Notes under the pieces: model-generated | Told to the model about the DNA's origin: nothing | The model's database searches: none | What the model saw: only the letters and a program-made list of their open reading frames with translations | Assembly (NCBI GenBank): GCA_963750955.1 | Contig: CAVVSI010000006.1 | Coordinates: 8,548-72,547 of the forward strand | DNA: 64,000 nt | Source of the DNA: an uncultured Actinomycetota bacterium | Lineage (GTDB): Bacteria; Actinomycetota; Actinomycetes; Actinomycetales; Microbacteriaceae | Direction of reading: 5' to 3' | In this document: positions 527 through 25,649 of the stretch, in pieces | Numbering within the stretch: the first letter of the stretch is position 1 | Layout of the letters: each line of letters starts with the position of its first letter | Position numbers and translations under genes: made by a program

Positions 527-2116
527 ATGAAGATGTCCCGATTCCGGCTCTCCGCTCTCGCGGTCGCCGCAGCCGCAGTGCTCACGCTGTCGGCCTGCAG
601 CGGCGACGGCGGCGGCACCGCGTCACCGTCCGCCACAGTTCCGAGCGCCGAGACGCCCGCGGAGGGCGGCGAGCTCACGATCCTCGTCGCGGGAGCGATG
701 AGCACCTGGGATCCGGGCTCGTCCACGGGCAGCTTCCCCGGCGTCCAGTGGGACCGCCTGTACGCGGTCTACGGTTCACTGATCACCGTCAACACCGAGG
801 GCGTCGTCGAGCCGGGCCTGGCCGAGAGCCTGACGACCGAGGACGGCGGTGACACCTGGACGCTGAAGCTGCGCGAGGGCCTGACGTTCACCGACGGTGA
901 GGCGTTCGACGCGCAGGCGGTCAAGGACAACTGGGATCGCTTCGCCGACCCGGCCAACAACCTGGGTGCGAACCGCATCGCCTCGACGTTCGCGTCGACA
1001 GTCGTCGACGAGACGACGCTGGAGATCGCCTCGAACGAGACCAATCCGGTGCTCGACATCCAGATCGCTGACTCGATCGCATTCATCGCGTCGCCGGAGT
1101 CATTCCCGGCTGCAGGGACGCCGCTGACCGAGCCCATCGGAGCGGGACCCTTCACCCTCGAGGAGTGGGACGCCGCAGTCGGTGAGACGTTCGCCAAGAA
1201 CCCGGACTACTGGGACGAGGGCAAGCCCTACCTCGACACGCTGAAATTCCAGCTCGTCGCCGATCCGGCCCAGCGCGTGACATCGGTCGTGCAGGGCGAC
1301 GCGCAGATCATGAACGGCTACCCGTTCCAGTGGATCGCCGACGCGGAGAACCCCGCGGTCGGGGTGTTCCCGGTCATCTCGGGCGGCATCCGTCACTTCG
1401 TGTTCAACACGACCTCCGACCTGTTCAGCGACGTGCGCGCCCGTCAGGCCGTGCAGCTGGCAGTCAACCCGACCGAGCTCGTGCAGACGCTGACGCAGGA
1501 CCCGGCGGCCGAGGGCAGCACCGCGCTGTTCCCCGACACGTCGCCGTACTACGACGCCGATCTGGCATTGCCCGAGCAGAACGTGGAAGAAGCGCAGTCG
1601 CTGGTCGACGAGATCACCGGCGAGGGCACGGACTTCACGATCGACCTGCTCATCGCGGGCGTCCCCGAGCTCGTCCGCGCCGGTGAGCTGTTCCAGCTCA
1701 CGCTGCAGGAGCTCGAAGGAGTCACGGTCAATCTCACGCAGATCCCGATCCCGGAGTGGCGCGCGGCGGCCTACGACAAGGACGACTTCGACGTCACCTT
1801 CTATCCCGGCGTGTTCGACCTCAACAGCCCCCAGGTCGGCTTCGGCAACCTGTTCGGAGTGGGCGGTCTCGACAACTTCGCGAACTTCGACGACGCTGAC
1901 ATGACGGCGGCGATCAGCGAAGCGCGCGAGGCCACCACCGACGAGGACCGGGTCGCGGCGCTGCAGAAGGTGCAGGAGGTCTACGTGGACCAGGTGCCCA
2001 TCGTGGTCTTCGGCATCGACTACCGCTCGTTCCTCCACGGCGCGGACGTCGTCGGGCTGCAGTCCATGGGCCGTGGCGCGCTGTACACCGACCGGATCGG
2101 ATACGCGGCCGAGTAG
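527..2116 (+). CDS. ABC transporter substrate-binding lipoprotein, family 5 (Dpp/Opp/Nik type)
   Basis: Lipoprotein signal MKMSRFRLSALAVAAAAVLTLSAC-SG. About 530 aa, typical of family-5 SBPs. First gene of an ABC operon. ATG 527 preferred over the ORF-track start at 380. Confidence 0.85.
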   Translation: MKMSRFRLSALAVAAAAVLTLSACSGDGGGTASPSATVPSAETPAEGGELTILVAGAMSTWDPGSSTGSFPGVQWDRLYAVYGSLITVNTEGVVEPGLAESLTTEDGGDTWTLKLREGLTFTDGEAFDAQAVKDNWDRFADPANNLGANRIASTFASTVVDETTLEIASNETNPVLDIQIADSIAFIASPESFPAAGTPLTEPIGAGPFTLEEWDAAVGETFAKNPDYWDEGKPYLDTLKFQLVADPAQRVTSVVQGDAQIMNGYPFQWIADAENPAVGVFPVISGGIRHFVFNTTSDLFSDVRARQAVQLAVNPTELVQTLTQDPAAEGSTALFPDTSPYYDADLALPEQNVEEAQSLVDEITGEGTDFTIDLLIAGVPELVRAGELFQLTLQELEGVTVNLTQIPIPEWRAAAYDKDDFDVTFYPGVFDLNSPQVGFGNLFGVGGLDNFANFDDADMTAAISEAREATTDEDRVAALQKVQEVYVDQVPIVVFGIDYRSFLHGADVVGLQSMGRGALYTDRIGYAAE

Positions 2117-2126
2117 GAGAACCAGG

Positions 2127-2175
2127 AGGAGACCGGTGCCGTCGTTCGTTGGGGCGGACTCGGCACCGGTCTCCT
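2127..2175 (+). promoter_or_regulatory. intercistronic stem-loop after the SBP gene
   Basis: Perfect 15-bp inverted repeat AGGAGACCGGTGCCG (2127-2141) / CGGCACCGGTCTCCT (2161-2175) with a 19-nt loop, between the SBP stop and the first permease. No clear U-tract follows. Confidence 0.5.
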
Positions 2176-2203
2176 GCTTCTCTCGACCTCGACGGAGAAC
2201 CAC

Positions 2204-3157
2204 ATGAAAAGCACCATGCGAGCGATCGGGTCGCGACTCCTCTACGGGATTCCCGTGCTGATCATCGTGACTCTCGGAGCGGCGGCGCTGATGGATCTCA
2301 TGCCCGGCTCGCCGGGTCAGGCCATCCTCGGCGACGCCGCCACCCAGGAGCAGGTCGACGCGATCAACGCGCAGCTCGGCTACGACCAGCCATTCATGGT
2401 GCGCTACCTGGAATGGGCCGGCAACGCCCTGCGTGGTGACTTCGGAACCACGCTGTTCACCCAGGAGCCGGTCACGGACGTCGTCATGCGTCGATTGATC
2501 GTGACCGCGCAGATCGCACTGATGGCGCTCTTGTTCGCCCTCATCGCGGCGGTGCCGCTTGCGATGATCGCCGCCCTGCGGTCGGGCAAGCTGCTGGATC
2601 GCACCCTCAATTTCATCACCTCGGCCCTGCTGAGCATCCCGTCCTTCGTCAACGTCGTGATCGTGTCGCTGATCTTCGTGGTCTGGCTCAAGTGGTTCCC
2701 GGCGACCGGCTGGGTTCCCCCGTCCGAATCGCTGGCCGACAACCTCCGCTATGCCTTCCTGCCGGCTCTCGCGCTGAGCATCTACGAGGGCGCCTTCTTC
2801 TACCGCGTGATCCGCTCGGACCTCACCGGCACCCTCCGGGAGGATTACATCCTCGTCGCCCGGGCGAAGGGCCTTCCCCGCTCGTACATCCTCGCCCGCC
2901 ACGCGATGCGTCCGTCGCTCACGTCACTGGTCACGGTGATGGGCCTGGCGCTCGGGCGCCTTCTGGGCGGTGCCGTGATCGTCGAGTTCTTCTTCTCCGT
3001 GCCGGGGCTCGGCGCCGAGGCCGTGAACGCGGTCTCCATCAAGGACATGCCGGTGATCCAGGCCATCGTCACGATCTGCGTCGTGGCGTACGTGCTGATA
3101 TTCATCGTCGTGGACCTCGCCTATGCGTGGATCGATCCGAGAGTGAGCGTGCGATGA
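2204..3157 (+). CDS. ABC transporter permease (DppB/OppB-like)
   Basis: 317 aa, multi-TM hydrophobic profile. Stop overlaps the next start (ATGA at 3154). Confidence 0.85.
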   Translation: MKSTMRAIGSRLLYGIPVLIIVTLGAAALMDLMPGSPGQAILGDAATQEQVDAINAQLGYDQPFMVRYLEWAGNALRGDFGTTLFTQEPVTDVVMRRLIVTAQIALMALLFALIAAVPLAMIAALRSGKLLDRTLNFITSALLSIPSFVNVVIVSLIFVVWLKWFPATGWVPPSESLADNLRYAFLPALALSIYEGAFFYRVIRSDLTGTLREDYILVARAKGLPRSYILARHAMRPSLTSLVTVMGLALGRLLGGAVIVEFFFSVPGLGAEAVNAVSIKDMPVIQAIVTICVVAYVLIFIVVDLAYAWIDPRVSVR

Positions 3158-4100
3158 CGACGCAGGTGACACCGGGGTCGCCGACCGACGGACCCCGCAC
3201 GCAAGGCTTGAACGCGGTCATCCGGCCGCGCCGCGACGGCACTTCGATGGCGCTCATCCCCAGATTGCGCCCTCGCCGCCGCCGCAAGGTCGGTCGGGGG
3301 ATGCTGTGGTTCGCGGTCATCTGGCTCACGCTGCTGATCCTCGCCGCGGTGTTCGCGGACTTCATTCCCGGCCTCCCGGGCTACGAGGAGAAGATCGGCA
3401 CGTTCGCGCAGCCGCCCGACGGCACGATCGGCGGCCTGCTGGGCACCGATGGCGTCGGGCGCAGCAATCTGTCCCGCATCATCTACGGCGCACGCGTCTC
3501 ACTGACCATCGCTGTCGTCTCGACGCTGATCGGACTCACGATCGGCGTGATCGTCGGGATGATCGGCGGATACTACCGACGCGGTGCCGAGACCGTCGCG
3601 AACATCCTCGCCAACACGCTGTCCGCGCTGCCGCCGCTGCTACTGCTGCTCGCGCTGGTGTCGGCGATCGGCGCATCCTTGTTCGGCATCACCATCGCCC
3701 TCGGGGTGGTCATCGCAGACCTCTACATCCGCGTGACGAAGGGGGCGGTGATAGCCAGCGCGAACCGAGAATACGTTCTCGCCGCGCGCGCCTTGGGCGC
3801 CGGAGACCTGCGCATCATGATCAAGGAGATCCTTCCCAACCTGGTGCCGGTCCTGGCCGCCATCATTCCGATGGCGATGGCCATCATGATCGTCGTCGAA
3901 GGGTCTCTGAGCTTCCTCGGCTACGGCATCCCGGCGCCGACGCCCAGCTGGGGCGGCATGATCGCGGCCGGCGCCGACATCATGCGACAGTTCCCGCTGG
4001 TGATCTTCTGGCCGGTCGTCACGCTGTTCCTCACGGTGCTGTCGTTCAACACGGTCGGCGACTACCTCTCCAGCCGCACGGACGTCAGGGAGGGAAAGCT

Positions 4101-4104
<4 letters not shown>
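3154..4104 (+). CDS. ABC transporter permease (DppC/OppC-like)
   Basis: In-frame ATG 3154 inside ORF 2692..4104. MTTQVTPG... is followed by TM segments. The upstream part of that ORF is an Arg/Pro-rich overprint. Confidence 0.85.
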
Positions 4105-5269
<1,165 letters not shown>

Positions 5270-5273
<4 letters not shown>

Positions 5274-6226
5274 GCGACGACACGGCCACCGAGACACGGG
5301 CCCGCCCGGGCTGGCTCAGAGAGGATGCCCTGCTGACCGTCGAAGACCTGCACTGCTCGTTCAAGACGGCATCCGGTCGCGTCCACGCCGTTCGCGGCGT
5401 GACGTTCGACCTGCGACCGGGCGAGACTCTGGGGCTCGTCGGCGAGTCGGGATGCGGCAAGACCACGACCGGACGCGCGATCCTCCGGCTGCCCCCTGGT
5501 CAGTCGGGCACCGTGACGTTCCGGGGCGAGGACATGTCGACCTACTCGAGCCGCGAGATGCGGGCCGCCCGGCGGCGGCTGCAGATGATCTTCCAGGACC
5601 CGCTGTCGGCGTTCAACCCGCGTCGCCGCGTGATCGACATCGTAGGTGAGGGGCTCGAGATCCAGGGTGTGCCGAAGGCCGAGCGCGACGAGCGCGTCGC
5701 CGCCGCTCTCGAGCAGGTGGGCATGAGCGTGCAGATGGTCGGAGGCCGCCGTCCGCACGAATTCTCCGGCGGACAATGCCAGCGCATCTCGATCGCGCGT
5801 GCCCTGGCCCTCGGCCCGGACGTGATCGTCTGCGATGAGCCGGTCGCCTCGCTCGACGTCTCCGTCCAGGCTCGGGTCCTCAACGTCCTCCACGACATCC
5901 GAGAGCGCAACGAGCTGTCTCTCGTCTTCGTCTCGCACGATCTTGCTGTCGTGAAGGTCATGGCCGACCGAATCGCGGTGATGTATCGCGGACGGATCGT
6001 CGAGATCGGTGACGCGGATGCGGTCTACCGGAGCCCGTCGCACCCCTATACGCGGCGGTTGCTGGACGCTGTTCCGGTGATCCATGAAAGCGAGCGGGCG
6101 TTCGAGGCGGGCGTCGACGACGGTGACGACTCCTGGCGCACGGTCGACCGGGCCCTCGTCGAGGTCGGTCCGGGGCACTTCGCCGCGCTCGGCGACATCG
6201 TGACCGACGGCGAGACCGTGTCGTGA
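5270..6226 (+). CDS. ABC transporter ATP-binding protein (DppF-like)
   Basis: ATG 5270 overlaps the previous stop. GESGCGKTT, FSGGQCQR, VIVCDEPVASLD. Confidence 0.85.
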
Positions 6227-7392
6227 CCGCTGCAGCCGTTCTCGACGAGGAGACCCCCGCGCCGGCAGGGTCCGCAGGCCTGCGTGTGGTGGTGATCGCG
6301 GCCGGGGCGCACATCTTCCAGGCGGCGCACGTTCCAGCGATCCTCGCCACCGGCGTGGATGTGATGGGTGTCTTCGACGCCGACACCTCGCGGGCGGCCG
6401 AGGTGGCCGCCAGGCGCGGGTGGAGGGTCTCCGAGACGCTCGACGAGCTGCTCGCGCTCGACGCGGACGCCGCGGTGATCTGCGCCCCGCATCCCCTGCA
6501 CGCCGAGCTCGTCGAGCGCTGCCTGGGTGCGGGTCTCTCGGTGCTCGTCGAAAAGCCGCTCGCCGCGCGAGTCAGCGAGATCGATGCGCTCATCGCCGCC
6601 GCCGAAACGGCCGGACGGCAGGTGGCGGTCGTCCAGCAGCACCGCCTGCGCGCCGAGGTCGTCGACGCGCGCCGGAGAATCGGCGCCGGCGAGCTGGGCG
6701 TCATCCACCGGGCAGTCGTCACCGCGAGCTATCCCAAACGTGCCAGCTACTACCTGGACACACCCTGGCGCGGCACCTGGGAGGGCGAGGGCGGTGGAGT
6801 GCTGCTTAATCAGGGTCTGCACGACATCGACGTGCTCGTGCACCTCCTCGGGCGACCGGATGCCGTCACCGCAAGCCTTCGCACACTCGTGCAGCCGATA
6901 GAGACCGAGGACACCGCCGACGTCCTCCTCGAGTGGGCAGACGGCGCCACTGCCACCGTGCACGTCACCAGCGCGGCCCGGCTCGACGGCAACCGCATCG
7001 AATTCTTCGGCTCACGAGGCTCACTGCGACTGTCGCAGAGCGGCCTCGACATCCGCTCAGCCGATCTCGACTTCCGGGAGTTCGCGGCCACGCCCGGCGG
7101 GCATTTCGACGCCTACGAGGTGTCGGACTGGCGGCGCGCTCTGCCGCACGGAGGCGGCACGCACACCGAGGTCTACTCGGACTTCGCGAAGGCGTGGGCC
7201 GAGAACGGCGAGCCGCTGACCGCCGCGCGCGGAGCGCGCGACGCTGTCGAGGTCATCGCCGCTGCCGCGCTCTCGTCGGCCCGACGCGCCACTGTGGTGC
7301 TTCCCCTCGATCCCGCCGAGTTCGACGCGTTCCTGGACGCGCGGATCGCGACCTCTCCTGGGCGTCGAACCTCCGAGAGGACACCGGCATGA
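6223..7392 (+). CDS. Gfo/Idh/MocA family oxidoreductase
   Basis: 389 aa. N-terminal Rossmann-like region and VLVEKPLA (EKP motif). Start overlaps the ATPase stop. Confidence 0.75.
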   Translation: MTAAAVLDEETPAPAGSAGLRVVVIAAGAHIFQAAHVPAILATGVDVMGVFDADTSRAAEVAARRGWRVSETLDELLALDADAAVICAPHPLHAELVERCLGAGLSVLVEKPLAARVSEIDALIAAAETAGRQVAVVQQHRLRAEVVDARRRIGAGELGVIHRAVVTASYPKRASYYLDTPWRGTWEGEGGGVLLNQGLHDIDVLVHLLGRPDAVTASLRTLVQPIETEDTADVLLEWADGATATVHVTSAARLDGNRIEFFGSRGSLRLSQSGLDIRSADLDFREFAATPGGHFDAYEVSDWRRALPHGGGTHTEVYSDFAKAWAENGEPLTAARGARDAVEVIAAAALSSARRATVVLPLDPAEFDAFLDARIATSPGRRTSERTPA

Positions 7393-8177
7393 CCGCTTCC
7401 CCCCCGCCGATCGAAGAGACCCCGCTCAACAACCTCCGGGACCTCGGCGGCATCGCCGTGGCGGGCGGGCTGATCGCGCCCGGGCATCTGTTCCGCAGCG
7501 ACGACGTGTCGACGGTTCCCGACGAGCAGGCGCGGGAGCTGTACGACCGCGGCATCCGCACCATCATCGATCTGCGCTCGCCCGCCGAAGCCGAGCACAC
7601 CGGGCGAGGGCCGCTCGCCCGCTACGACGTGACCTACCGACGGATGTCGCTCCTGCGGGGCGGCGCCGAGCCGGAGGAGTTCCTCCAGCACCTGCGTGAG
7701 GACTCCGCGACGCCACGCATCGTGGGCGAGTACTACGCTGCGACGCTCGTCGCCGAGGCGGAGACTCTCGCAGACGCGATCCGTGCGATAGCGGATGCTC
7801 CCGGAGGAGTGCTCTTCCACTGCGCGGCGGGCAAGGACCGGACCGGCATCTTCGCAGCGGCCCTGCTCTCCGTGCTGGGCGCAGATGAGGAGGACATCGC
7901 CACCGATTACGCGCTTTCGTCCGTCGCTGTGCCGCGGATCATGGCCCGCGTGAGCGCATCGATCGGCCACCTCATGGGTGAGTCGGACGCGTTCTTCCGG
8001 GCAGCGGCGGAGGGGCGGGGGCCGGTCAGCCCGCTGCTGGGCGCCGAGCACGACGCGATGGTCGAGATGCTCGCCATCCTCGACGACGAGCGCGGCGGCG
8101 CGGCCGCGGTGCTGCGCGAAGCCGGTCTCGACGACGACGTCGTGGAGCGCCTCCGGGCGCGCGTGGTTCGAAGCTGA
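7389..8177 (+). CDS. tyrosine-phosphatase-family protein (CX5R)
   Basis: ATG 7389 overlaps the previous stop. Active-site loop FHCAAGKDRTG. Confidence 0.75.
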   Translation: MTASPPPIEETPLNNLRDLGGIAVAGGLIAPGHLFRSDDVSTVPDEQARELYDRGIRTIIDLRSPAEAEHTGRGPLARYDVTYRRMSLLRGGAEPEEFLQHLREDSATPRIVGEYYAATLVAEAETLADAIRAIADAPGGVLFHCAAGKDRTGIFAAALLSVLGADEEDIATDYALSSVAVPRIMARVSASIGHLMGESDAFFRAAAEGRGPVSPLLGAEHDAMVEMLAILDDERGGAAAVLREAGLDDDVVERLRARVVRS

Positions 8178-8208: not shown

Positions 8209-8988
8209 TCAGCTCAGCGCGTCGGCGATGCCCTCCAGCCCGGAACGCAGGGCCTGACGGTAGATGCCGAGGTCGCTTCCGTACGCGAGCACCGTGAAGC
8301 CCCGCTCGACGAGCGAGCGCGCGTCGTCCGGACCGCTCGTCAGGAATCCGACGGGCTTGCCATTTGCCCTGCCGGCAGAGACGATGCGCTCGAGCGCCGC
8401 GAGGTAGAGCGGGTGATCGAACTGCGTGGGGATGCCCATGCTCGTCGTGAGGTCGAAGTGACCGACCCACAGGATGTCGACGCCCGGCACTGCTGCGATC
8501 TCCTCGACGTTCTCGAGCGCCTCGGCGGTCTCGATCTGCACCATGACGATCGTCTCGGAGTTCGACCTCTTCATCGCCGCGACAGGCTCCACCTCGCCGA
8601 AGTCGTGCGCAGCCAAGCCGAACATCGTGCCGCGGATGCCCTGCGGTGGGTAGTGCGCCCACGATGCGATCGCCGCGGCCTCGTCGGCAGTGCCGACCAT
8701 CGGGACCATGAGCCCTACCGCCCCCATGTCCAGGGCGAGCGCGATGTTCTCACGAGAAGCGGAGGGCACGCGCACGAACGGCGTCGACCCCCCGGCGCGG
8801 GTCGCGGTCAGGACGGGCGTCATCGTCTCCCAGCCGAAGCCGGTGTGCTCGCCGTCGATCAGAACGAAGTCGGCACCGGCGCCGGCGGCCGCCCGTGCGA
8901 CGGCGACCGAGGGGAACGCCAGCAGGAAGGTGCCCACAACGGTCTCACCGCTCAGCACTCGGGCGCGGAGGCTCCTGCGGCGCACCAT
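8209..8988 (-). CDS. HpcH/HpaI-family 2-keto-3-deoxyacid aldolase
   Basis: MVRRRSLRARVLSGETVVGTF...FVLIDGEHTG...VMVQIETAEAL. ATG at 8988 lies inside the longer ORF 8209..9924, whose N-terminal 312 aa are an Arg-rich overprint of the upstream gene. Confidence 0.8.
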   Translation of the reverse strand: MVRRRSLRARVLSGETVVGTFLLAFPSVAVARAAAGAGADFVLIDGEHTGFGWETMTPVLTATRAGGSTPFVRVPSASRENIALALDMGAVGLMVPMVGTADEAAAIASWAHYPPQGIRGTMFGLAAHDFGEVEPVAAMKRSNSETIVMVQIETAEALENVEEIAAVPGVDILWVGHFDLTTSMGIPTQFDHPLYLAALERIVSAGRANGKPVGFLTSGPDDARSLVERGFTVLAYGSDLGIYRQALRSGLEGIADALS

Positions 8989-10034
8989 CACGACACGGTC
9001 TTCGGAGCGTCGGGCACGCCGGTCCAGCGCTCGTGTTCCAGAGCAGCCGGGTTCACCACGACATGAGAGGGTCGGAAGCCCCGCTTGACCTCGAGGAGCG
9101 AGCGCACGCACCCTGAGCCGTTGCCGTAGGCGAGCTGGTCGGTCCACCCGGTCGCGTGCGGCGAGAGGAGGACGTTGTCGCAGTCCAGAAGCGGATCGTC
9201 GTCGTCGGCGGGCTCCTTCTCGAGCACGTCGAGGCCGGCCCCGCGGATGCGGCCGGCGGCGAGCACGTCGGCCAGGGCCTTCTGGTCGATGAGCGGCCCG
9301 CGCGCGACATTGACGATCACAGCGTTGTGCTTCATCAGGGCGAGCCGTTCCGCATTCACGATGTGCCGGGTCTCGGGCGTGAGTGCGGCGGTCACGACGA
9401 TCGCCTCGGACTCGGCCATCAGCTCTTCGATGGAGACCAGCTCGGCCCCGAGCGCGCTCGCCTTCGCGGTGTCGAGGTACGGGTCGAACGCCAGCACGCG
9501 CATGCCGAGGGGTTCGAGCAGACGGCTGACCTCGCGGCCGATGTTTCCGAACCCGATGATGCCCAGCGTCTTGCCGGGAAGCCCCAGCCCGTTGTACTCG
9601 TAGCGCTCCGACCAGTCCCGGCGCTCGCGCACGATGCGGTCCTTCTGTCGCACGTTGTGTGCGACGGCCAGCAGCAGCGTGACGGCGGCGAGAGCCATCG
9701 GCCCGCGCGTGCCGTCGGGCGTGATGGTGACCGGGATGCCGGCGGCGGTGCACGCGTCGAGGTCGATCGTGTCGTAGCCGACGCCGAATCTCGCGACGAC
9801 CTTGAGGCGATCGGCGCCTTCCAGCGACCGTGCGTCCAGCGCATTGCCGAGCACCATGACCCCGTCGTAGCCGGCGAGAGCGCCGGGCGACAGCGGTGTC
9901 TCGTTGACGTCGAGGTATTCCCACTCGACGCCCGGCTCGGCCTCGAGTTCGGCCATGCCGATGTCTCCCCAGCCGATCGTGCCGTCGTCGGAGCGGAAGT
10001 CGCGCGTCAGCGCGACGCGGAAGGTCTCAGGCAT
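8988..10034 (-). CDS. D-isomer-specific 2-hydroxyacid dehydrogenase (NAD-binding)
   Basis: 348 aa. GIIGFGNIGREV dinucleotide fold, ...NVARGPLID..., ...LLSPHATG. Stop overlaps the aldolase start. Confidence 0.8.
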   Translation of the reverse strand: MPETFRVALTRDFRSDDGTIGWGDIGMAELEAEPGVEWEYLDVNETPLSPGALAGYDGVMVLGNALDARSLEGADRLKVVARFGVGYDTIDLDACTAAGIPVTITPDGTRGPMALAAVTLLLAVAHNVRQKDRIVRERRDWSERYEYNGLGLPGKTLGIIGFGNIGREVSRLLEPLGMRVLAFDPYLDTAKASALGAELVSIEELMAESEAIVVTAALTPETRHIVNAERLALMKHNAVIVNVARGPLIDQKALADVLAAGRIRGAGLDVLEKEPADDDDPLLDCDNVLLSPHATGWTDQLAYGNGSGCVRSLLEVKRGFRPSHVVVNPAALEHERWTGVPDAPKTVS

Positions 10035-10157
10035 GTCGTCTCGTTTCTGCGGAGCGCGCAGCGGTCGGGGCTTCGTTCACTCCGATGCTACGAATCGAGC
10101 GAGTCTGGATCGAGGGGTCGTCCCGGGGGCTGGGACGTCTGCGAACCGCCCTCGGCC

Positions 10158-11117
10158 TCAGTGCTCGTTCTTCACCACGGGTGTGCCGTGCGTGTGGAAG
10201 CTCTCGATCGTCTTCATGCCCCACGCCTGACCCTTCTTGCGCTCCTCCTGGGTCCACTCCACGACCGGCGAGTCGGGATCCAGCAGCAGTCGCGCGCCGG
10301 CGTTGGCGAATTCGATCCGGTTGCCGCCGGGCTCCCACACGTACAGGAAGAAAGTCTGGTTGATCGCGTGCTTGTGCGGGCCGGATTCGATGTAGATGCC
10401 GTTCTCGAGGAAGATGTCCGCGGCCTTGAGGATGTCCTCGCGGGTGTCGGGCGCGAACGCGACGTGATGCAGGCGGTTGCCGTGCTTGGTCCAGTCGTCG
10501 GAGTACACGACGTCGTAGGACTTGTTGTTGAAGTGGAACCACCAGGCCGCGTAGCCGCCGGCATCCAACGCGATCCGCTCGCTCTCGCGGCCGCCGAGCG
10601 CCCGGGCGATGAACTCGCCGTTGGCGACGACGTCCTTCGCCAGGTAGTTGATGTGATCGAGCCGCCGCGCGTTCACGCCGCGTCCGGGAAACGCGGATGC
10701 CTGGTTCTTCAGCGCGGGCTTGTCGTCGGTGGCGACGTAGCGCTCGGTCTCGTAGTAGATGCCCATCGCGTGGCCGTCGGGGTCGCGGAACCGGTACGTC
10801 GGTCCGGTGCCCTGCTCGCCGTCCACCCATCCCTCGCCGAGGCCGAAGCCGTCGATCGCGGCGACCCGCCGATCGAGCGCCTCCTGGCTCGTCGTGCGGA
10901 ACGTGGTGAGCCCGACGCCGGCGTCCGCTGAGGCCGTGAGCTTGATCGTGTACCGCTGGTATTCGTCCCACGTGCGCAGGTACACCGATTCGCCCGCCTC
11001 GGCGACGACGCGCATCGCGAGCAGGTCGCGGAAGAACCACAGGCTCTTGTCGAACGTGGGCGTGAGCAGTTCGACGTTTCCGATGTGGGCGACATCGAAC
11101 GAGGTGTAATCGGTCAT
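10158..11117 (-). CDS. type I (VOC-fold, XylE-like) extradiol ring-cleavage dioxygenase
   Basis: 319 aa, two-module VOC layout. NRLHHVAFAPDTREDILKAADIFLENGIYIESGPHKH...YVWEPGGNRIEF parallels the catechol 2,3-dioxygenase C-terminal metal-binding module. Confidence 0.8.
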   Translation of the reverse strand: MTDYTSFDVAHIGNVELLTPTFDKSLWFFRDLLAMRVVAEAGESVYLRTWDEYQRYTIKLTASADAGVGLTTFRTTSQEALDRRVAAIDGFGLGEGWVDGEQGTGPTYRFRDPDGHAMGIYYETERYVATDDKPALKNQASAFPGRGVNARRLDHINYLAKDVVANGEFIARALGGRESERIALDAGGYAAWWFHFNNKSYDVVYSDDWTKHGNRLHHVAFAPDTREDILKAADIFLENGIYIESGPHKHAINQTFFLYVWEPGGNRIEFANAGARLLLDPDSPVVEWTQEERKKGQAWGMKTIESFHTHGTPVVKNEH

Positions 11118-11144
11118 CGTGCGGTCCTCTCTGACAGGGCGGGT

Positions 11145-12224
11145 CTACAGGCGCGGTCGTGGGAACACGAGGCCGTCGAAGATCTTGCGGGCGGTGCGAA
11201 TGGAGGTCGACGTCGCGCGCCAGATCCCGTCATCGCCGCGGCCGACGCTCACCCGCGAGGGGAAGGCGCCGCTGGGGTGCTCGATGTCGACCGGCCCGTC
11301 GCCGGACGGGTTGGCCAGGTCGGCGCCGACCGTTCCGGGGATGCAGACGCCCGCGGCGACCGATGCCGCCATGAGCACGCCGATCGAGGTGTGCACCCGG
11401 TGCGGGATGAAGGCGCGGGTGGAGATCACGCCCCCGTTCTTCGGAGCCGAGAGGAGGAACATCTTGGGGACGGTCGCGTCGGTCACGTCGCCGAGTCCCA
11501 TCAGCGGGCCGGCCAGGAGACGCACGCGTTCGACCGCGGTCTTCAGCTCGGCGTTCTGCTCCAGCTCGGCGGGGGTCTCGTCGCCGCGGACGCCGAACTC
11601 GTCGGCGCGCAGCAGCACAACCGGCATCCCGTTGTCGACGAGGGTGACGCGATGCCCGTCGAGCCGGTCGGCGACCGCACCGGTGGGCAGGAGGCGCGCG
11701 TCTGCCGCAGCGCCCATCTCGATCTCTATCGCCGCGGCGGTTCCCGGCACCCCGTCGATCGCGGCGGCCCCGTCGTAGTCGACGCGACCCCCCGGCGTGG
11801 CGAAGGTCTGCGTCGCGAGGGCGCCGGTGTTGCGCAGGCGGATGCGCACCGTGGTGGTGTCGCCGTGCGGCACGGTCAGTCCGCGCTCGACGGCGAACGG
11901 CCCGATGCCCGCGAGCAGGTTGCCGCAGGTCTGCGCATCGCTCACCGACGGCTGATCGACCACGACCTGAAGGAAGAGGTAATCGAGGTCTACGCCCGGC
12001 TCGCTCGATCGCGAGACGATCGCGACCTTGCTGGTCAGCGGGTGGGCGCCGCCCAGACCGTCGATCTGCGCCGGGTCGGGGCTGCCCATCACCCGCAGCA
12101 GGAGGTCGTCGCGCTCCGCCGGATCGGCGGGCACGTCTTCGGCGAGGAAGTAGGCGCCCTTCGACGTGCCTCCGCGCATGAGCATGCAGCGGATGCCGTG
12201 GCGCACAGGATCAGCGACGAGCAT
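11145..12224 (-). CDS. galD: PrpF-family isomerase, probable 4-oxalomesaconate tautomerase (GalD/LigU type)
   Basis: 359 aa. CMLMRGGTSKGAYF ... TCGNLLAGIGPFA is typical of the PrpF/AcnD-accessory fold. Lies between the dioxygenase and the aldolase. Confidence 0.7.
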   Translation of the reverse strand: MLVADPVRHGIRCMLMRGGTSKGAYFLAEDVPADPAERDDLLLRVMGSPDPAQIDGLGGAHPLTSKVAIVSRSSEPGVDLDYLFLQVVVDQPSVSDAQTCGNLLAGIGPFAVERGLTVPHGDTTTVRIRLRNTGALATQTFATPGGRVDYDGAAAIDGVPGTAAAIEIEMGAAADARLLPTGAVADRLDGHRVTLVDNGMPVVLLRADEFGVRGDETPAELEQNAELKTAVERVRLLAGPLMGLGDVTDATVPKMFLLSAPKNGGVISTRAFIPHRVHTSIGVLMAASVAAGVCIPGTVGADLANPSGDGPVDIEHPSGAFPSRVSVGRGDDGIWRATSTSIRTARKIFDGLVFPRPRL

Positions 12225-12924
12225 CCTCGTATTCCTCCTGCGACATGTAGGTCACGCCGAGGTCGGCCAGCACGGGCCGGAGGTTGTTGCGCTCGAGGCT
12301 GAGCCCCCCGGCCTGGTAGACGGCGCGCGATGCGGCCTCCTTCTCGAGGCGTGCGTCGGACGCGGCGAGAGCGTCGGCCGCTTCGTCGCGGGGGACGCAG
12401 AGCACGCCGTCGTCGTCGGCCACGATGACGTCACCCGGACGCACGGTGACGCCGCCCACCGTGATCGGGACGTTGACGCTGCCGGGTGTCGCCTTCACAG
12501 TGCCCTGCGCGTTGACGGCGGCCGACCAGACGGGGAAGCCCATGGCGCGCAGGTCGGCGACATCGCGTACGCCGCCCGTGGTCACCAGCCCGCGCACGCC
12601 GCGATGCCGGAGCGCCGTCGCGAAGAGCTCGCCGAACGAGCCGTCCAGCGACGGGGTCATCGTGGTGACCACGAGCACGTCGCCCGCCCGGCACTGCTCG
12701 ACGGCGGCGTGGATCATGAGGTTGTCGCCGGCCGCGCACAGCACCGTGACGGCCGAGCCCGCGATCCGGACGCCGTCCTGGATCGGTCGCAGCGAAGGGC
12801 CGACCAGCCCCCGGCGACCCATCGCCTCGTGGACTGTGGCGACGCCGTGCACGCCGAGCGCGTCGATCGTCGCGGCATCCGTACGCAGGATGTCGGTGAC
12901 GACGACGGTGTCGGTTCTGCTCAC
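12211..12924 (-). CDS. galC: RraA-fold 4-carboxy-4-hydroxy-2-oxoadipate aldolase / oxaloacetate decarboxylase (GalC/LigK type)
   Basis: GTG 12924 overlaps the upstream stop (GTGA). ...VHEAMGRRG...GELFATALRHRGVRGLVTTGGVRDV... is RraA-like. Confidence 0.75.
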   Translation of the reverse strand: MSRTDTVVVTDILRTDAATIDALGVHGVATVHEAMGRRGLVGPSLRPIQDGVRIAGSAVTVLCAAGDNLMIHAAVEQCRAGDVLVVTTMTPSLDGSFGELFATALRHRGVRGLVTTGGVRDVADLRAMGFPVWSAAVNAQGTVKATPGSVNVPITVGGVTVRPGDVIVADDDGVLCVPRDEAADALAASDARLEKEAASRAVYQAGGLSLERNNLRPVLADLGVTYMSQEEYEDARR

Positions 12925-13676
12925 GCCAGGACGTCCGTGACCTGGGGGTAGTACCGCATGTACGCCTCGCCCATGGTGTCGACCGGCAGGCCGAGGTTCG
13001 GCCCGGCGTTGCGCTTGACCTGCACACCCCGCCGCACGGCGAGGGAGGTGTAGTACTCCCACATGTGCTTCTGGGCCGGCAGGCACTCCATGGCCTTCTG
13101 CTTGAGCGGGAAGGACGCCGTGATGTCCAGCAGCACGTTCGGCTTGAAGTCGGACTGCTCGGGCTGGTGCGGCTCGAAGAAGAACACGGGGGGAGCGCCG
13201 ATGATCTCGTCCGTGGTCGGCGCGGTGCCGTCGGAGTTCGCGACGCCGATCGCCTGTGCGAGGACGCGGGCCTGCAGCGCCATGCGTGCGGCGGCGGGGT
13301 GGTCGCCGTTGTAGGGGTCGGCGAGCGGATGGGTCAGCACGACCGTCGGCTGCACCCGGCGGAACACGTCGACGAGCCGCGCCACCGTCTCGACCGACTC
13401 GACGAGAGGGTAATCGCCGGCGTCGAGGAACTCGATCTCGGCGCCGAGGGCGGATGCGGCGGCCGCGGCCTCATCGCGACGGATCTGCTTGATCTCGTCG
13501 AGAGACTTGCCCTGCAGCCACTGGCTGGCCGACTCGCCGCGCTCGCCGTACGACAGGCACACGACCGTCGCCCGCTCGCCGCGCATCGTCGCCGCGGCGA
13601 TCGCCCCGCCGGCACGCCACACGAAATCACCCGCGTGGGCGCTGACGACCAGCAGCGAAGGCGATGTCTCTGCCAA
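12921..13676 (-). CDS. galB: LmbE/PIG-L-family zinc hydrolase-fold protein, probable 4-oxalomesaconate hydratase (GalB type)
   Basis: TTG 13676 is preceded by GGAGACAGGAG. LLVVSAHAGDFVWRAGG and HPLADPYNGDH match the PIG-L motifs. First gene of the minus-strand operon. Confidence 0.7.
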   Translation of the reverse strand: MAETSPSLLVVSAHAGDFVWRAGGAIAAATMRGERATVVCLSYGERGESASQWLQGKSLDEIKQIRRDEAAAAASALGAEIEFLDAGDYPLVESVETVARLVDVFRRVQPTVVLTHPLADPYNGDHPAAARMALQARVLAQAIGVANSDGTAPTTDEIIGAPPVFFFEPHQPEQSDFKPNVLLDITASFPLKQKAMECLPAQKHMWEYYTSLAVRRGVQVKRNAGPNLGLPVDTMGEAYMRYYPQVTDVLA

Positions 13677-13755
13677 GGGGGACTCCTGTCTCCACGGATG
13701 CCCGCCGCAAGCGGGGCCGAGGCGCGCGGCTCTGCTTCGAGCGCACGGTGTCTCG

Positions 13756-13821
13756 TGGTGACAGCGAACCACACCCCTAGCGCAATGGTCAAGATTTTGG
13801 TTACAATTCTGGTGACCCTGA
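13756..13821. promoter_or_regulatory. direct-repeat array in the divergent promoter region
   Basis: Phased 12-bp units TGGTCAAGATTT / TGGTTACAATTC / TGGTGACCCTGA at 13786-13821, plus TGGTGAC at 13756-13762, in a locally AT-rich stretch. Confidence 0.4.
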
Positions 13822-15306
<1,485 letters not shown>

Positions 15307-15357: not shown

Positions 15358-16557
15358 TCAGCCGCGGGTGACCCGCACCGGCATGCTCTCCCAGCCGACG
15401 AGCGTGTTGTTGAGGTGCCGGCGCTCGGGACCCGCGGGCTCGATCTCGACGATGCGGTCGAGCAGGGCATCGAGTACGCAGACCGCCTCGAGTCGGGCGA
15501 TGTGCTGCCCCACGCACTGGTGGATGCCCATGCCGAACGCAACATGACCCGAGGGGTCGCGATCGAGGTCGAACACGTCGGGGTCGTCCCACCGCCGCGG
15601 GTCGCGGTTGGCCGAGCCGAGGAACATCAGGATCTTCTCGCCGTCGCGGATGTCGACGCCGCCGACCTGCAGGTCTCGCGTGGCGGTCCGGAAGAACGTC
15701 TGCACCGGCGAGGTCAGCCGCACCGCCTCTTCGAAGGCGGTGCGCGTGAGGTGACGATCGCGCCGGAGGCGCGCGACCGAGCCGGGCGTGTGGGCGATGG
15801 CGTGCACGATCGCCGCGATGCCGGTGACGGTCGTGTCGACTCCCGCCGTGAGGAGCGAGCGCACGATCATCGGCGCCTGCTCGGCCGTGATCTCGGCGCG
15901 GTCGGCGGCCGCCCAGATCTGAGCGCCGAAGCCGTCGTCGGTGAGGTTCTCGCGGCGGCACTGCGTGCCGATCCACTCGGTGACCGGGGGCATGTGCGGG
16001 GCGGCGCTGGTGACGAGTTCGTTCGGAGGTCCGAACGCATTGAAGGCGAAGTCGCCGTACGGCAGCAGGTTCTCGCGGCCCTCCCTGCCGATGCCGACCG
16101 CATCCGGGAAGACGCGCAACGGGAACACTTCGGCCAGATCGGCGACGGCATCGAACTGGTCGCCGCGGGCGAGCAGCTCGTCCACGACGGTCGCGGCATC
16201 CGCCCGCCAGCGCTCCTCGAGCTCCCGCAGGCGCCGCGTGGTCAGGAGCGGCGCCACCACCGCGCGGGGGGCGTCGTGCCGCGGCGGGTCGGCCTCGAGC
16301 AGCACGCTCGGCGGACGCCACGGCTTCTCGTGGCGGAAGTTCGAGAGCCCGACGCCCGCCGCCGACTGGAACGTCTGCCAGTCCACGAGCGCCGCGTGGA
16401 CCTCGTCGTATCGCGCCATCGCGTAGACCCCGTACTTGTCCAGCCGCACGACCGGCCCGGCATCCCGCAGCATCGCGTGGAACGGATGCGGATCGTTCAG
16501 GAACTCCAGGTCGAACGGATCGATGGATGCCGCATCCGTCGCTGTCGTGGTGGTCAT
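15358..16557 (-). CDS. cytochrome P450 monooxygenase (probable aromatic O-demethylase)
   Basis: 399 aa. Heme-thiolate loop FGMGIHQCVGQ. I-helix-like LLTAGVDTT. EEAVR (ExxR). Confidence 0.85.
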   Translation of the reverse strand: MTTTTATDAASIDPFDLEFLNDPHPFHAMLRDAGPVVRLDKYGVYAMARYDEVHAALVDWQTFQSAAGVGLSNFRHEKPWRPPSVLLEADPPRHDAPRAVVAPLLTTRRLRELEERWRADAATVVDELLARGDQFDAVADLAEVFPLRVFPDAVGIGREGRENLLPYGDFAFNAFGPPNELVTSAAPHMPPVTEWIGTQCRRENLTDDGFGAQIWAAADRAEITAEQAPMIVRSLLTAGVDTTVTGIAAIVHAIAHTPGSVARLRRDRHLTRTAFEEAVRLTSPVQTFFRTATRDLQVGGVDIRDGEKILMFLGSANRDPRRWDDPDVFDLDRDPSGHVAFGMGIHQCVGQHIARLEAVCVLDALLDRIVEIEPAGPERRHLNNTLVGWESMPVRVTRG

Positions 16558-16579: not shown

Positions 16580-17564
16580 TCACAGATCGAGGACCAGCCG
16601 GTCGGAGAGCGACCGGGAGATGCAGGGGAAGAGGCAGCGGGATTCCGCCCGTTCGGCCTCCGTCAGCAGCGAGTCGCGATGGTCCGGCAGGCCACGAAGC
16701 ACGCCGGTCTCGCACGTTCCGCACACGCCCTGGGCGCACGAGGTGATGACGTCGACGTCGACCCGGCGCAGCGCCTCGACGATCGATTCGTCTCGCGCCA
16801 CCGTGACGATCGCGCCGGAGCTCGCGACCTCCACCTCGAACGCCGTGGCCGGACGACCGTCGTCGGCGCGCGCGGTGAAGCGCTCCAGACGCACTCGGTG
16901 CCGGCCGAGCGGAGCAGGCCCATGCGTCGACCGCGTTCAGCATGCGCTCCGGGCCGCACGCGTAGATCAGGGGCGCTGAGTCCGCCGCCGGCATCCAGTC
17001 GTCGAGCACGGCGCGGCCTCGCTCGTCGGCGGTGTGGATCGTGACGCGGTCGCCGTACGCGGCGAGCTCCTCCCGGTAGGCGAGGCGTTCGCGTGATCGG
17101 CCGAGGTAGAGCAGGTGCCAGGGGGTCTCGAGCATCTCGGCCTGCCGGATCATCGGGATCAGCGGCGTGATGCCGATGCCTCCCGCGACGAAGAGGTATT
17201 CCGCCCCGGGGGAGAGGCGGAAGTTGTTGCGCGGTCCGCCGAAGCCGACGGCATCCCCGATCCCGACCCGCGTGTGCAGATACTCCGACCCCCCGCGGCC
17301 GTCGCGCTCGCGCAGCACCGCGATCGTGAAGCTGTGCGCGTCCCAGCGGTCGCCGAGCAGGCTGTACTGCCGGGTGGTGCCGTCCGGCAGCACGACATCG
17401 ACGTGCGCGCCCGGTGCCCAGTCGGGCAGCCGCTCGCCGTTCGGGCGGGCGAGCGTGAGCTCCACGACGTCGCGCGCGACCTCGCGTCGGCCGGTGACGA
17501 CCAGCGTCGCGCCGTGCGCGGCATTGCGGCGAGCGGATGCCGCGACCGCAGTGGCCTGGCTCAT
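16580..17564 (-). pseudogene. PDR/VanB-type reductase (flavin-NAD domain plus C-terminal 2Fe-2S ferredoxin), broken by a 1-nt frame shift
   Basis: RQYSL and GGIGITP lie in frame 17564->. The ferredoxin domain (LERFTA...SCAQGVCGTCE...CLFPC) continues in ORF 16580..16894. The frames join if one C of CCC 16919-16921 is removed (..AVDAWPAPLGRHRVRLERF..). Confidence 0.75.
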
Positions 17565-18713: not shown

Positions 18714-20067
18714 ATGCCCGAGTCGCTCGCGCAGGCCATCGCCCGCGCCGGAAGCCCTGTCCGTCTCCTGCGCGACGCGCAGGCACGGCCGACCGTGTTC
18801 CCGGTGACGCCGGAGTTCAGCAACTGGCGCTCGGAGCAGCAGGCCTGGCGCAGGTCGGTCGCCCTGCTGGACCAGTCCCATCACATGACCGATCTGTTCA
18901 TCACCGGACCCGACGCGCTCCGTCTGCTGAGCGACGTCGGTGTCAACAGCTTCGCGAACTTCCGCGTCGACCAGGCGAAGCAGTTCATCGCCGTCAATCA
19001 CGAGGGATACCTGATCGGCGATGCGATCCTGTTCCACCTCGCCGAGCAGTCGTTCGACCTCGTCGGATGGCACATGGTGCTCGACTGGGTGCAGTACCAC
19101 GGCGAGACGGGCGACTACGACGTGTCGTTCGAGCGGGACGCCAGCTCGGTCGTCCGCCAGGGCGACCCGAAGCTGTACCGCTATGAGATCCAGGGACCCG
19201 AACGCGCTCGCTCTCATGGAGAAGGCGACCGGCGCGGAGGTGCCGCCCACGAAGTTCTTCGGCATGACCTCGTTCACGATCGACGGCCTGGCGGTGCGCT
19301 CGCTGCGCCACGGGATGGCCGGGCAGCCCGGTTTCGAGCTGTTCGGGCCGTGGGCGGAGGGCGAGCGGGTCCGCTCCGCACTCATCGCCGCCGGCGAGGG
19401 ACTCGACCTCGTGCTCGTCGGCTCGAAGGCTTACTCGTCGGCCAACCTGGAATCGGCATGGGTGCCTTCGCCGCTGCCGGCCATCTTCAGCGGCGAGGGC
19501 ACCGACGCCTACCGCGAGTGGCTGCCCGCCGCGCGGGCGGGGTCGCTCGCCGGCAGCGTCACGTCGGATGACATCGAGGACTTCTACCTGACCCCGTTCG
19601 ACCTCGGCTACGGCCGCAGCGTCGCGTTCGACCACGACTTCATCGGCCGTGCGGCGCTCGAGCGCCACGCCGCGGCGCAGAACCGGCAGAAGGTGACGCT
19701 CGTGTGGGACCCCGAGGACGTCGCCGCCGCGATGCGGTCGCTCTTCGAGCCCGGCATCCCGGCGAAGTACATCGATCTGCCGAAGGCGCGCTACGGGCAG
19801 CACCAGGTCGACCGGGTGCTGGCCGACGGCCGCGACGTCGGCATCTCGCACGACGCCGGCTACATCACCAACGAGCACGCGTTCGTCTCCCTCGCGAGCA
19901 TCGACAACGCGTACGCCGAGCCCGGGACGGAGGTCGAGGTCATCTGGGGCGAGGAGCCCAACTCGCACAAGCCCGCGGTCGAGAAGCACCGGCAGGTCTC
20001 CATCCGCGCCACCGTGCAGCCCGCGCCGTACTCGGCCTTCGCCCGGGAGAACTATCGCAAGAGCTGA
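18714..20067 (+). pseudogene. second LigM/DesA-family THF-dependent O-demethylase, 1-nt frame shift
   Basis: ORF 18714..19571 carries residues up to ...YRYEIQGP. The rest (NALALMEKATG...RHGMAGQPGFELFGP...) is in ORF 19021..20067. They join if one C of CCC 19197-19199 is removed. Confidence 0.8.
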
Positions 20068-20896: not shown

Positions 20897-20929
20897 TAGA
20901 GGTGAATGCCTCGGCGAAGGGAGGTCGGC

Positions 20930-23907: not shown

Positions 23908-23968
23908 CGTTGCCTCCTCGCAAAGCGCCACCGGAAACACGGCCGCTTCTTCGGACATGCTAGATCAG

Positions 23969-23983
23969 TTCCGTTGAACGGAA
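23969..23983. promoter_or_regulatory. perfect 15-bp palindrome TTCCGTT-G-AACGGAA
   Basis: In the divergent iclR/liv promoter region, followed by GTTCC-CA-GGAAC at 23990-24001. Confidence 0.55.
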
Positions 23984-25647: not shown

Positions 25648-25649
25648 GC

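Follow-up and report, generated by a model that had tools for sequence, protein, structure and literature searches.

The locus described here raises the question of which enzyme opens the aromatic ring, and on what substrate, in a bacterial cluster whose other members resemble the lower-pathway enzymes of gallate catabolism. It lies in an uncultured member of the Actinomycetota (Microbacteriaceae), within a 64,000-nucleotide stretch of contig CAVVSI010000006.1 (assembly GCA_963750955.1; G+C approximately 70%), the whole of which is referred to below as the window. A first-pass annotation of this DNA had described a single minus-strand operon of six enzymes, comprising a gallate-type lower pathway driven by a XylE-like type I extradiol dioxygenase in the slot of a LigB-type enzyme, and two extra enzymes. 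In our analysis the six genes are two units and not a single pathway: a four-gene module (10158-13676) accompanied by a LigM-type demethylase gene, and a downstream pair. Judged from the sequence comparisons set out below, we think it probable that the four genes form a complete gallate operon, in which a ring-opening enzyme of the VOC superfamily has replaced the LigB-type enzyme.

The six genes all occupy the minus strand, from 8209 to 13676, and their order and coordinates were confirmed by the open reading frames and by Pfam matches to each product. In the direction of transcription they are as follows.

12921-13676, minus strand: GalB-like zinc hydratase of the PIG-L/LmbE fold (PF02585; PDB 5cgz)
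12211-12924, minus strand: GalC/LigK-like CHA (4-carboxy-4-hydroxy-2-oxoadipate) aldolase/oxaloacetate decarboxylase of the RraA fold (PF03737; NF006731; PDB 3noj)
11145-12224, minus strand: GalD/LigU-like 4-oxalomesaconate (OMA) tautomerase of the PrpF fold (PF04303; NF033377; PDB 6p3j/6p3h)
10158-11117, minus strand: two-domain VOC (type I) extradiol dioxygenase, predicted gallate dioxygenase (PF00903; synteny)
8988-10034, minus strand: D-isomer 2-hydroxyacid dehydrogenase, accessory gene outside the conserved gallate module (PF02826/PF00389)
8209-8991, minus strand: HpcH/HpaI class II aldolase, accessory gene (PF03328)

The LmbE gene begins with a TTG start codon, which has GGAGACAGGAG 5' of it and GGAG upstream. 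Overlaps of start and stop codons, which had been reported for several junctions, are indeed present: 4 nt (GTGA) between the LmbE and RraA genes, 14 nt between the RraA and PrpF genes, and 4 nt between the dehydrogenase and HpcH genes. The PrpF and dioxygenase genes are separated by 27 nt, and the dioxygenase and dehydrogenase genes by 123 nt. No recognisable terminator-like site was found in the 123-nt gap, and its predicted fold has no greater stability than that of shuffled sequence (z = -0.06).

The identities of the three lower-pathway enzymes were assessed against equivalog models and solved structures. The LmbE-fold protein aligns over its full length (residues 7-251) with GalB of Pseudomonas putida (PDB 5cgz) at E = 4e-75, other PIG-L structures (deacetylases) giving E = 1e-7 or weaker, and the N-terminal metal motif AHxxDF is common to this protein and GalB. 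The PrpF-fold protein passes the OMA tautomerase equivalog NF033377 (456.7 bits against a cut-off of 440) and matches the LigU structures 6p3j/6p3h at E of approximately 1e-110. On the model for methylaconitate isomerase (PrpF) it fails, scoring 169 where 440 is required. The RraA-fold protein exceeds the threshold of NF006731, the CHA aldolase equivalog (301.2 bits against 179), and aligns with PDB 3noj at E = 9.7e-69, although it does not reach the narrower TIGR02798 model (263.8 against 304.5). Thus, the GalB-, GalC- and GalD-like identities originally proposed for these proteins have equivalog or structure-level matches behind them, and the predicted assignments are about as firm as sequence allows.

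The dioxygenase is of a different family from the ring-cleavage enzymes of the known gallate pathways. It has the two-domain VOC/glyoxalase fold, with full-length alignments to 9wgj, 3lm4, 7q2a, 1f1r and 1mpy, and it contains the NRLHHVAF motif noted previously (residues 214-221). Its matches are to VOC families, with none to the LigB domain. Likewise, no LigB-family match was found among the window proteins scanned with Pfam, a scan that covered part of the open reading frames of the window and did not extend to the rest of the genome. A type I enzyme in the ring-cleavage slot, as originally suggested, is thus borne out. The best NCBIfam model is that for catechol 2,3-dioxygenase (TIGR03211), whose cut-off of 320.2 bits the protein fails to reach, at 301.2 bits. 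The nearest homologues are 94-97% identical and come from uncultured Actinomycetota metagenome-assembled genomes (MAGs), with Microbacterium species at 92%. Judged by its similarity to the loci compared, the window stems from a Microbacterium-like organism within the Micrococcales. Among solved structures the closest is 9wgj (E = 1.6e-105, approximately 50% identity), then 3lm4 and 7q2a (approximately 1e-59, 36% identity) and 1f1r (6e-30).

The active site was compared with that of homoprotocatechuate 2,3-dioxygenase (HPCD) and MndD, whose positions were checked residue by residue in the alignment, and conservation was assessed over an alignment of 235 full-length clade members that are 46-92% identical to the window protein. 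The metal triad His155, His218 and Glu269 corresponds to His155, His214 and Glu267 of MndD/HPCD; both histidines are present in 235/235 sequences and the glutamate in 234/235. The window enzyme also has equivalents of Asn157, Trp192, His248 and Tyr257 (MndD/HPCD numbering), the last two being the second-sphere residues His250 and Tyr259, which are invariant in the clade. A further second-sphere residue, the acid/base histidine, is His200 in HPCD and His199 in XylE. The residue that aligns with it here, without gaps, is Tyr201, standing opposite His200 of MndD/HPCD and the histidine of the GHE motif in 3lm4. Tyr201 is found in all 235 clade members and Lys199 in all but one, whereas 3lm4 and MndD have histidine at the former position and leucine or threonine at the latter. 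Homoprotocatechuate cleavage itself offers a precedent for one reaction being carried out by unrelated enzymes, of type I in Gram-positive bacteria (HPCD/MndD of Brevibacterium/Arthrobacter) and of the LigB type in Proteobacteria (HpcB/HpaD of Escherichia coli). Apart from the tyrosine, the window enzyme differs from HPCD in its low identity (approximately 29%) and in a gene context of OMA and CHA enzymes as opposed to the hpa pathway.

Additional residues are invariant and specific to the clade, namely Pro134, Lys137, Asn138, Ala233, Arg293, Gln297, Thr303, Phe307 and His308. AphC (7q2a) and the RHA1 protein of 3lm4, which we take to be alkylcatechol 2,3-dioxygenases and the closest type I relatives of known substrate class, share the fold and length of the window enzyme but keep the GHE histidine, work in semialdehyde-forming meta-cleavage pathways, and carry for the most part hydrophobic side chains (Leu, Ile, Phe) at the positions of Lys137, Asn138, Lys199, Arg293, Gln297 and His308 of the clade. 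Relative to the alkylcatechol enzyme, then, the predicted active-site residues are shifted toward polar and cationic side chains. A sister group (P0242, 49% identity) shares Lys137, Asn138, Arg293, Gln297 and His308 but retains His201 together with Ala199. Since its dioxygenase gene, on a metagenome contig of 2252 bp from JGI (locus L090), is also found in an operon with GalB-like and RraA genes, the change from histidine to tyrosine appears to have arisen inside a lineage already tied to the pathway.

We then turn to how constant the association of the four genes is. The sample comprised 80 loci with a dioxygenase at least 82% identical to that of the window, each belonging to a Micrococcales genus or to an unclassified Actinomycetota MAG, and of these 76 had sufficient upstream sequence to be eligible for a count of gene order. 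The order LmbE-RraA-PrpF-dioxygenase, in the same orientation, was found in 62 of the 76, and a divergent LigM gene was present in 60 of those 62. This arrangement is far beyond chance. In the window, the corresponding features are these.

13677-13899, no strand: promoter region that separates the divergent gallate operon and ligM, with a block of about 60 bp at roughly 13765-13825 that contains AGAATTGTAACCAAAATCTTGACCATTGCGCTAGGGGTGTGG
13900-15306, plus strand: LigM-type tetrahydrofolate-dependent vanillate/3-O-methylgallate O-demethylase of the GcvT family (NF047885)

The divergently transcribed demethylase of LigM/DesA type that had been proposed is therefore present, and it is the LigM model that it satisfies (NF047885, cut-off 580, score 919.8 bits); on the DesA model it scores 617.6 against 800. 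The block of about 60 bp is near-identical in alignments with loci L001, L004 and L009 and is partly duplicated in L022; it is possibly an operator or regulator binding site. A sigma-70 promoter scan is a poor guide in an actinobacterium of 70% G+C.

More distant clade members, and the sister group, were found in the following settings.

Geobacillus zalihae (L081/L082): dioxygenase divergent from GntR and a DUF6282-PIG-L-RraA-DUF1932-MFS-esterase operon
Lysinibacillus macroides (L086): dioxygenase-PIG-L-RraA-RidA-TRAP transporter-GntR
Bacillus smithii (L088): PIG-L-RraA-RidA-DUF1932 adjoining dioxygenase-MFS
Ktedonobacteraceae MAG (L087): DUF6282-PIG-L-RraA-dioxygenase-esterase
Propionibacteriales MAG (L089): PIG-L-RraA-PrpF-dioxygenase with a TRAP transporter, a GcvT-type demethylase and MTHFR
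Corynebacterium-type (L083): PrpF-Amidohydro_2-RraA-dioxygenase, where Amidohydro_2 is a LigJ-type hydratase non-homologous to GalB
Tersicoccus (L030): RraA-PrpF-dioxygenase followed directly by a LigJ-type gene
His-bearing sister P0242 (L090): GalB-like-RraA-dioxygenase

On this evidence the dioxygenase clade is linked to genes of the lower pathway for OMA in three phyla, Actinomycetota, Bacillota and Chloroflexota. The occurrence of the same dioxygenase with two non-homologous hydratases points toward OMA as its product. The linkage is not universal, because in Alicyclobacillus acidoterrestris the dioxygenase is accompanied only by an MFS transporter and a RidA-like gene.

It was also observed that, in clusters that lack PrpF, a DUF6282 or RidA/YjgF-like (Ribonuc_L-PSP) gene stands in its place (positions L081 5640-6545, L087 429-1367 and L089 13204-14181; L086 9454-9834, L088 3973-4356, L083 9157-9579 and L085 8050-8430). 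The proteins they encode are candidates for alternative OMA tautomerases; the window itself has no homologue of either.

The two genes downstream of the dioxygenase behave differently. The dehydrogenase and HpcH genes follow the dioxygenase in only two of the 80 loci (L004 and L005), both of which carry the same GFO oxidoreductase block, and in L001, whose dioxygenase is 97% identical to that of the window, an aldehyde dehydrogenase (ALDH) gene and an MFS gene occupy this place. In L091, L092 and L093 the pair occurs with no gal genes beside it. In Luethyella okanaganae (L091), it lies approximately 400 kb from the dioxygenase cluster of the same genome (L031) and is convergent with a block of SBP_bac_5-permease-permease-ABC-ABC-GFO/phosphatase genes, a block which also occurs in a Microbacterium genome and has its counterpart in the window at 527-8177. 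In Thermocatellispora the neighbours of the pair are rhamnosidase, aldo-keto reductase, GntR and GFO genes. The dehydrogenase reached no NCBIfam equivalog, and the HpcH protein scored far below the cut-offs of the GarL, HpaI and RhmA equivalogs; it probably acts on a 2-keto-3-deoxy sugar acid. We regard the two genes as most likely a distinct unit, of 2-keto-3-deoxy-sugar-acid type, which in this lineage adjoins the gallate operon. Two roles within the pathway, the dehydrogenase as a substitute for LigC and the HpcH protein as a second CHA aldolase, were considered and rejected, as the two genes are not retained beside the gal genes across genomes and accompany a different block. Hence the view in the first-pass annotation that the two extra enzymes stand outside the known pathway is upheld, whereas its single six-gene operon is not.

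What, then, is the substrate? The operon contains no ring-cleavage gene other than that of the dioxygenase, its constant partners are the OMA hydratase and aldolase, usually with the tautomerase, and the transporters beside members of its clade are of carboxylate type (MFS, TRAP). In the scheme that we favour, the enzyme would bind gallate as a catecholate on the His155/His218/Glu269 metal centre and insert O2 across the C4-C5 bond. Because C5 also bears a hydroxyl group, the product would be the tricarboxylate OMA and not a semialdehyde, so that neither a dehydrogenase nor a lactone hydrolase would be needed. The PrpF tautomerase, PIG-L hydratase and RraA aldolase would then convert OMA to pyruvate and oxaloacetate. 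Of the reactions by which a catechol-type dioxygenase could lead straight to OMA, cleavage of gallate is the simplest.

Protocatechuate, which might arise from vanillate through the same LigM, would be handled apart, by the pcaHG beta-ketoadipate pathway, for which the window has a full cluster.

42321-51044, plus strand: protocatechuate ortho (beta-ketoadipate) cluster, consisting of IclR (minus strand), pcaH, pcaG, pcaB, pcaD, pcaC, a double hot-dog thioesterase, pcaIJ and pcaF (PF00775/PF12391, PF00206, PF00561, PF02627, PF01144, PF00108)

Vanillate-derived protocatechuate thus already has a route, and gallate is favoured over protocatechuate as the substrate of the dioxygenase. Of the methoxylated gallate or protocatechuate-like substrates that had been suggested for the locus, the gallate half is supported by the OMA partners and the protocatechuate-like half is disfavoured by the presence of pcaHG.

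A number of points weigh against this assignment. It rests on gene context, and assay or genetic data for any member of the clade were not found. The canonical equivalent of His200 is missing from the dioxygenase, and standard extradiol chemistry is therefore not to be assumed and may differ. The sole solved relative within the clade, 9wgj, is labelled 'catechol 1,2-dioxygenase'. An ALDH gene (PF00171) lies near the dioxygenase in 38 of 74 related Micrococcales loci, in 32 of them directly downstream, and would suit a semialdehyde product such as that of protocatechuate 4,5-cleavage. The esterase genes in the Geobacillus and Ktedonobacteraceae loci could mean that a methyl-ester product is formed from 3-O-methylgallate. 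Finally, among the neighbouring genes of the window, those for a DesA-like demethylase and for a P450 reductase are both frameshifted.

The alternative that survives these comparisons best, although we regard it as unlikely, is that the enzyme is a protocatechuate 4,5-dioxygenase, whose product, CHMS (4-carboxy-2-hydroxymuconate-6-semialdehyde), would be oxidised to OMA by an ALDH or by the D-2-hydroxyacid dehydrogenase, bypassing the pyrone. The ALDH genes of the related loci speak for it, as do the position of the dehydrogenase gene after the dioxygenase gene in the window and the fact that vanillate is the best-known LigM substrate (NF047885). Against this, no ALDH homologue was found anywhere in the 64-kb window, the dehydrogenase belongs, as described above, to another unit, and protocatechuate is already served by the pcaHG of the window. 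Moreover, no ALDH gene, and no gene for CHMS dehydrogenase (LigC) or 2-pyrone-4,6-dicarboxylate (PDC) hydrolase (LigI), was found in the Bacillota, Chloroflexota, Propionibacteriales and Corynebacterium-type loci sampled. The ALDH, for example at 11046-12512 of L001, is often accompanied by an MFS transporter, MTHFR and PurU. It is generic, reaching no NCBIfam equivalog and having a mixture of betaine-aldehyde, hydroxymuconic-semialdehyde and succinate-semialdehyde dehydrogenases as its PDB neighbours, and may equally be a vanillin or syringaldehyde dehydrogenase.

It is improbable, in our estimation, that the dioxygenase instead cleaves 3-O-methylgallate, as DesZ and LigAB do, to the methyl ester 4-carboxy-2-hydroxy-6-methoxy-6-oxohexa-2,4-dienoate (CHMOD), which would undergo hydrolysis or cyclisation ahead of the lower pathway. 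Syringate breakdown is expected to pass through 3-O-methylgallate, and such routes are described with LigB-type enzymes (PMC12314914). An Abhydrolase_3 esterase gene is found in or beside the Geobacillus and Ktedonobacteraceae clusters, neither of which has LigM. These esterases could, however, be tannase-like and release gallate from its esters. The Micrococcales clusters have the gallate-making LigM and lack both an esterase and a PDC hydrolase, and no demethylase or esterase gene is present in the clusters of Lysinibacillus, B. smithii and the Corynebacterium type.

We consider it very unlikely that the substrate is some other hydroxylated aromatic, for example pyrogallol, a dihydroxybenzoate or a trihydroxy acid of flavonoid origin, and that the PrpF, LmbE and RraA proteins process an analogue of OMA. 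The atypical active site, with its Tyr201, and the plant-polyphenol genes of the window (C-glycoside deglycosidase, rhamnosidase, GH3, GH43) would suit such a compound, but the lower enzymes match those for OMA and CHA at equivalog or structure level, and the neighbours include carboxylate transporters and a 3-O-methylgallate demethylase. The last alternative, in which a conventional 2,3-dioxygenase for catechol or alkylcatechols happens to adjoin a lower pathway of gal type and the LigB-type partner of that pathway is encoded at another site in the genome, is hardly credible: many clade members are publicly annotated as 'catechol 2,3-dioxygenase' and TIGR03211 is the best NCBIfam model, but its 301 bits fall under the cut-off of 320, the canonical catalytic histidine is missing throughout the clade, the synteny with lower-pathway genes is coupled or tightly spaced in three phyla, and no genes for hydroxymuconic semialdehyde hydrolase or dehydrogenase or for the 4-oxalocrotonate steps are adjacent.

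The gallate reading also accommodates the genes beyond ligM, which are as follows.

15358-16557, minus strand: CYP199-family P450, the family of para-methoxybenzoate O-demethylases (PDB 9g9q 1.7e-174; CYP199A2/A4 approximately 1e-145)
16580-17564, minus strand: FNR-like and 2Fe-2S reductase for the P450 (PF00175 and PF00111, on two pieces)
18714-20067, plus strand: second GcvT-family O-demethylase, nearer DesA (syringate O-demethylase) than LigM
20170-20832, minus strand: GntR/FCD regulator (PF00392 and PF07729)
20906-21718, plus strand: NAD_binding_2/DUF1932 protein (Pfam)
21761-22873, minus strand: MetE-like cobalamin-independent methyltransferase (NF005085, 547 bits against a cut-off of 313)

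The CYP199, reductase, DesA-like and MetE-like neighbours fit a supply of gallate from methoxylated precursors. The P450 would remove the para-methoxy group of methoxylated benzoates, the DesA-like enzyme would convert syringate to 3-O-methylgallate, and LigM would convert 3-O-methylgallate to gallate, transferring the methyl group to tetrahydrofolate. The MetE-like enzyme probably regenerates tetrahydrofolate from the 5-methyl-tetrahydrofolate formed by LigM and DesA; its gene family is present in 22 related loci and lies convergent to the dioxygenase in 13 of them. The reductase gene is frameshifted near 16916, the L001 orthologue being intact at 339 aa. The DesA-like gene is broken at approximately 19197 by one extra G (...GGACCC-G-AACGCG...); L004, L005 and L009 have intact versions of 468 aa, so that the break is either a real pseudogene mutation or an assembly indel. 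Its two pieces score 192 and 374 bits on the DesA model NF047633, which is the best model although the cut-off of 800 is not reached, against 174 and 323 for LigM. GntR/FCD regulators recur beside the dioxygenase clade (L081, L083, L086, L087, L088 and L089).

The DUF1932 gene calls for separate mention. This partner recurs in both Actinomycetota and Bacillota. The known gallate pathway has no nicotinamide-dependent step. Homologues are present in 37 of the 80 Micrococcales loci and in L088 and L089, and in L081 (3183-4109) and L088 (2975-3880) the gene is within the operon. The window protein and the in-operon Geobacillus protein are 28% identical (E = 4e-26).

We next compared the locus with the known systems. 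The original accounts of the gal cluster of Pseudomonas putida KT2440 are reportedly those of Nogales et al. from 2005 and 2011. This cluster encodes GalA, GalD, GalB and GalC (PMC12314914, PMC10512348). The window has a homologous PIG-L GalB, PrpF tautomerase and RraA aldolase, with the same predicted chemistry after cleavage (OMA to its tautomer, then to CHA, then to pyruvate and oxaloacetate), and in KT2440, too, pcaHG for protocatechuate is kept apart from the gal genes for gallate (PMC12314914). The principal difference is that GalA belongs to the LigB superfamily (type II), whereas the enzyme in this slot of the window is a non-homologous VOC protein (type I). In addition, GntR/FCD or LysR regulators with ABC, TRAP or MFS transporters take the place of GalR, GalT and GalP in clusters of the window type, and a tetrahydrofolate-dependent demethylase is attached to them. 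Sphingobium sp. SYK-6 (DesA, LigM, DesB/DesZ/LigAB, LigU, LigJ, LigK) resembles the window in its LigM-type and DesA-like demethylases, with genes for tetrahydrofolate recycling nearby, and in its LigU-type tautomerase (6p3h, approximately 1e-110) and LigK-type aldolase. In contrast, the ring-cleavage enzymes of SYK-6 are all of the LigB type, and its LigJ hydratase is an amidohydrolase where the window has the GalB type, although some relatives of the dioxygenase do pair with the LigJ type.

Within the clade, the protein of the 9WGJ structure comes from Geobacillus zalihae and has Lys199, Tyr201 and the other signature residues. Its gene lies beside PIG-L and RraA-like genes, in a cluster which, unlike that of the window, has DUF6282 for PrpF and lacks LigM. 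The name 'catechol 1,2-dioxygenase' under which it was deposited implies another substrate and another mode of cleavage, and is unsupported by the gene context. A literature search with thin coverage of subscription journals found no publication characterising this protein; the deposition itself shows that work on a clade member is under way elsewhere.

A survey of syringate and gallate routes from 2025 describes only LigB-type ring-opening enzymes (LigAB, DesZ, DesB, GalA, MgaAB), all from Proteobacteria (PMC12314914). No paper on a VOC-type gallate dioxygenase was found in our literature search, which is absence of evidence only, most subscription journals being outside it. What is known is the Gal/Lig lower pathway, and what would be new is a VOC-superfamily ring-opener with the predicted role of GalA and without the His200 equivalent. 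This suggests an unrecognised Gram-positive route for gallate derived from tannin and lignin. A bolder proposal, which we hold tentatively as rather possible but somewhat short of probable, is that these enzymes constitute a widespread, undescribed class of VOC-fold gallate dioxygenases in which Lys199/Tyr201 replaces the second-sphere histidine kept by the other type I extradiol dioxygenases of our comparison, with O2 activation and proton relay unlike those of HPCD and BphC. Such a class would be the main aerobic opener of gallate and of acids derived from tannin and syringyl lignin, both in soil bacteria of the Gram-positive groups Micrococcales, Propionibacteriales and Bacillales and in Chloroflexota.

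Gallate is a hub of the aerobic breakdown of hydrolysable tannins and syringyl lignin. If correct, our reading would explain how abundant soil Actinomycetota, Bacillota and Chloroflexota use gallate-type compounds, would correct many annotations of 'catechol 2,3-dioxygenase' and 'VOC family protein', and would provide a compact four-gene module for lignin valorisation in Gram-positive hosts. The natural, invariant replacement of histidine by tyrosine at the best-studied second-sphere position is, moreover, a ready test of the accepted extradiol mechanism, for which the 9WGJ crystal structure already exists.

Elsewhere in the window, two further regions contain broken genes. A FAD_binding_3 gene resembling 4-hydroxybenzoate hydroxylase (40917-42102, minus strand) is present only as separate N- and C-terminal pieces, and a 2-oxoacid dehydrogenase region (36758-40124, plus strand) consists of an 806-aa open reading frame (E1 alpha, E1 beta and lipoyl) and then an isolated 118-aa fragment of the E2 catalytic domain. 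Together with the two frameshifts near the operon, these suggest either many assembly indels or a decaying region of the genome. At 52087-63998 there are genes for a fusion of a C-glycoside deglycosidase beta-subunit with a TIM-barrel protein, for another AP_endonuc_2 protein, a GH43-Abhydrolase_3 esterase fusion, a GH3 protein, a sugar-binding protein and a GH106 alpha-L-rhamnosidase. This looks like a plant-glycoside module, and the window as a whole resembles an island for the utilisation of plant polyphenols. Lastly, the region 23044-29994 has genes for an IclR regulator, for a Liv-type (branched-chain-like) ABC transporter whose binding protein is of the Peripla_BP_6 family, and for a bicupin that matches no NCBIfam model, and may be a further unit for the uptake and ring cleavage of aromatic acids.

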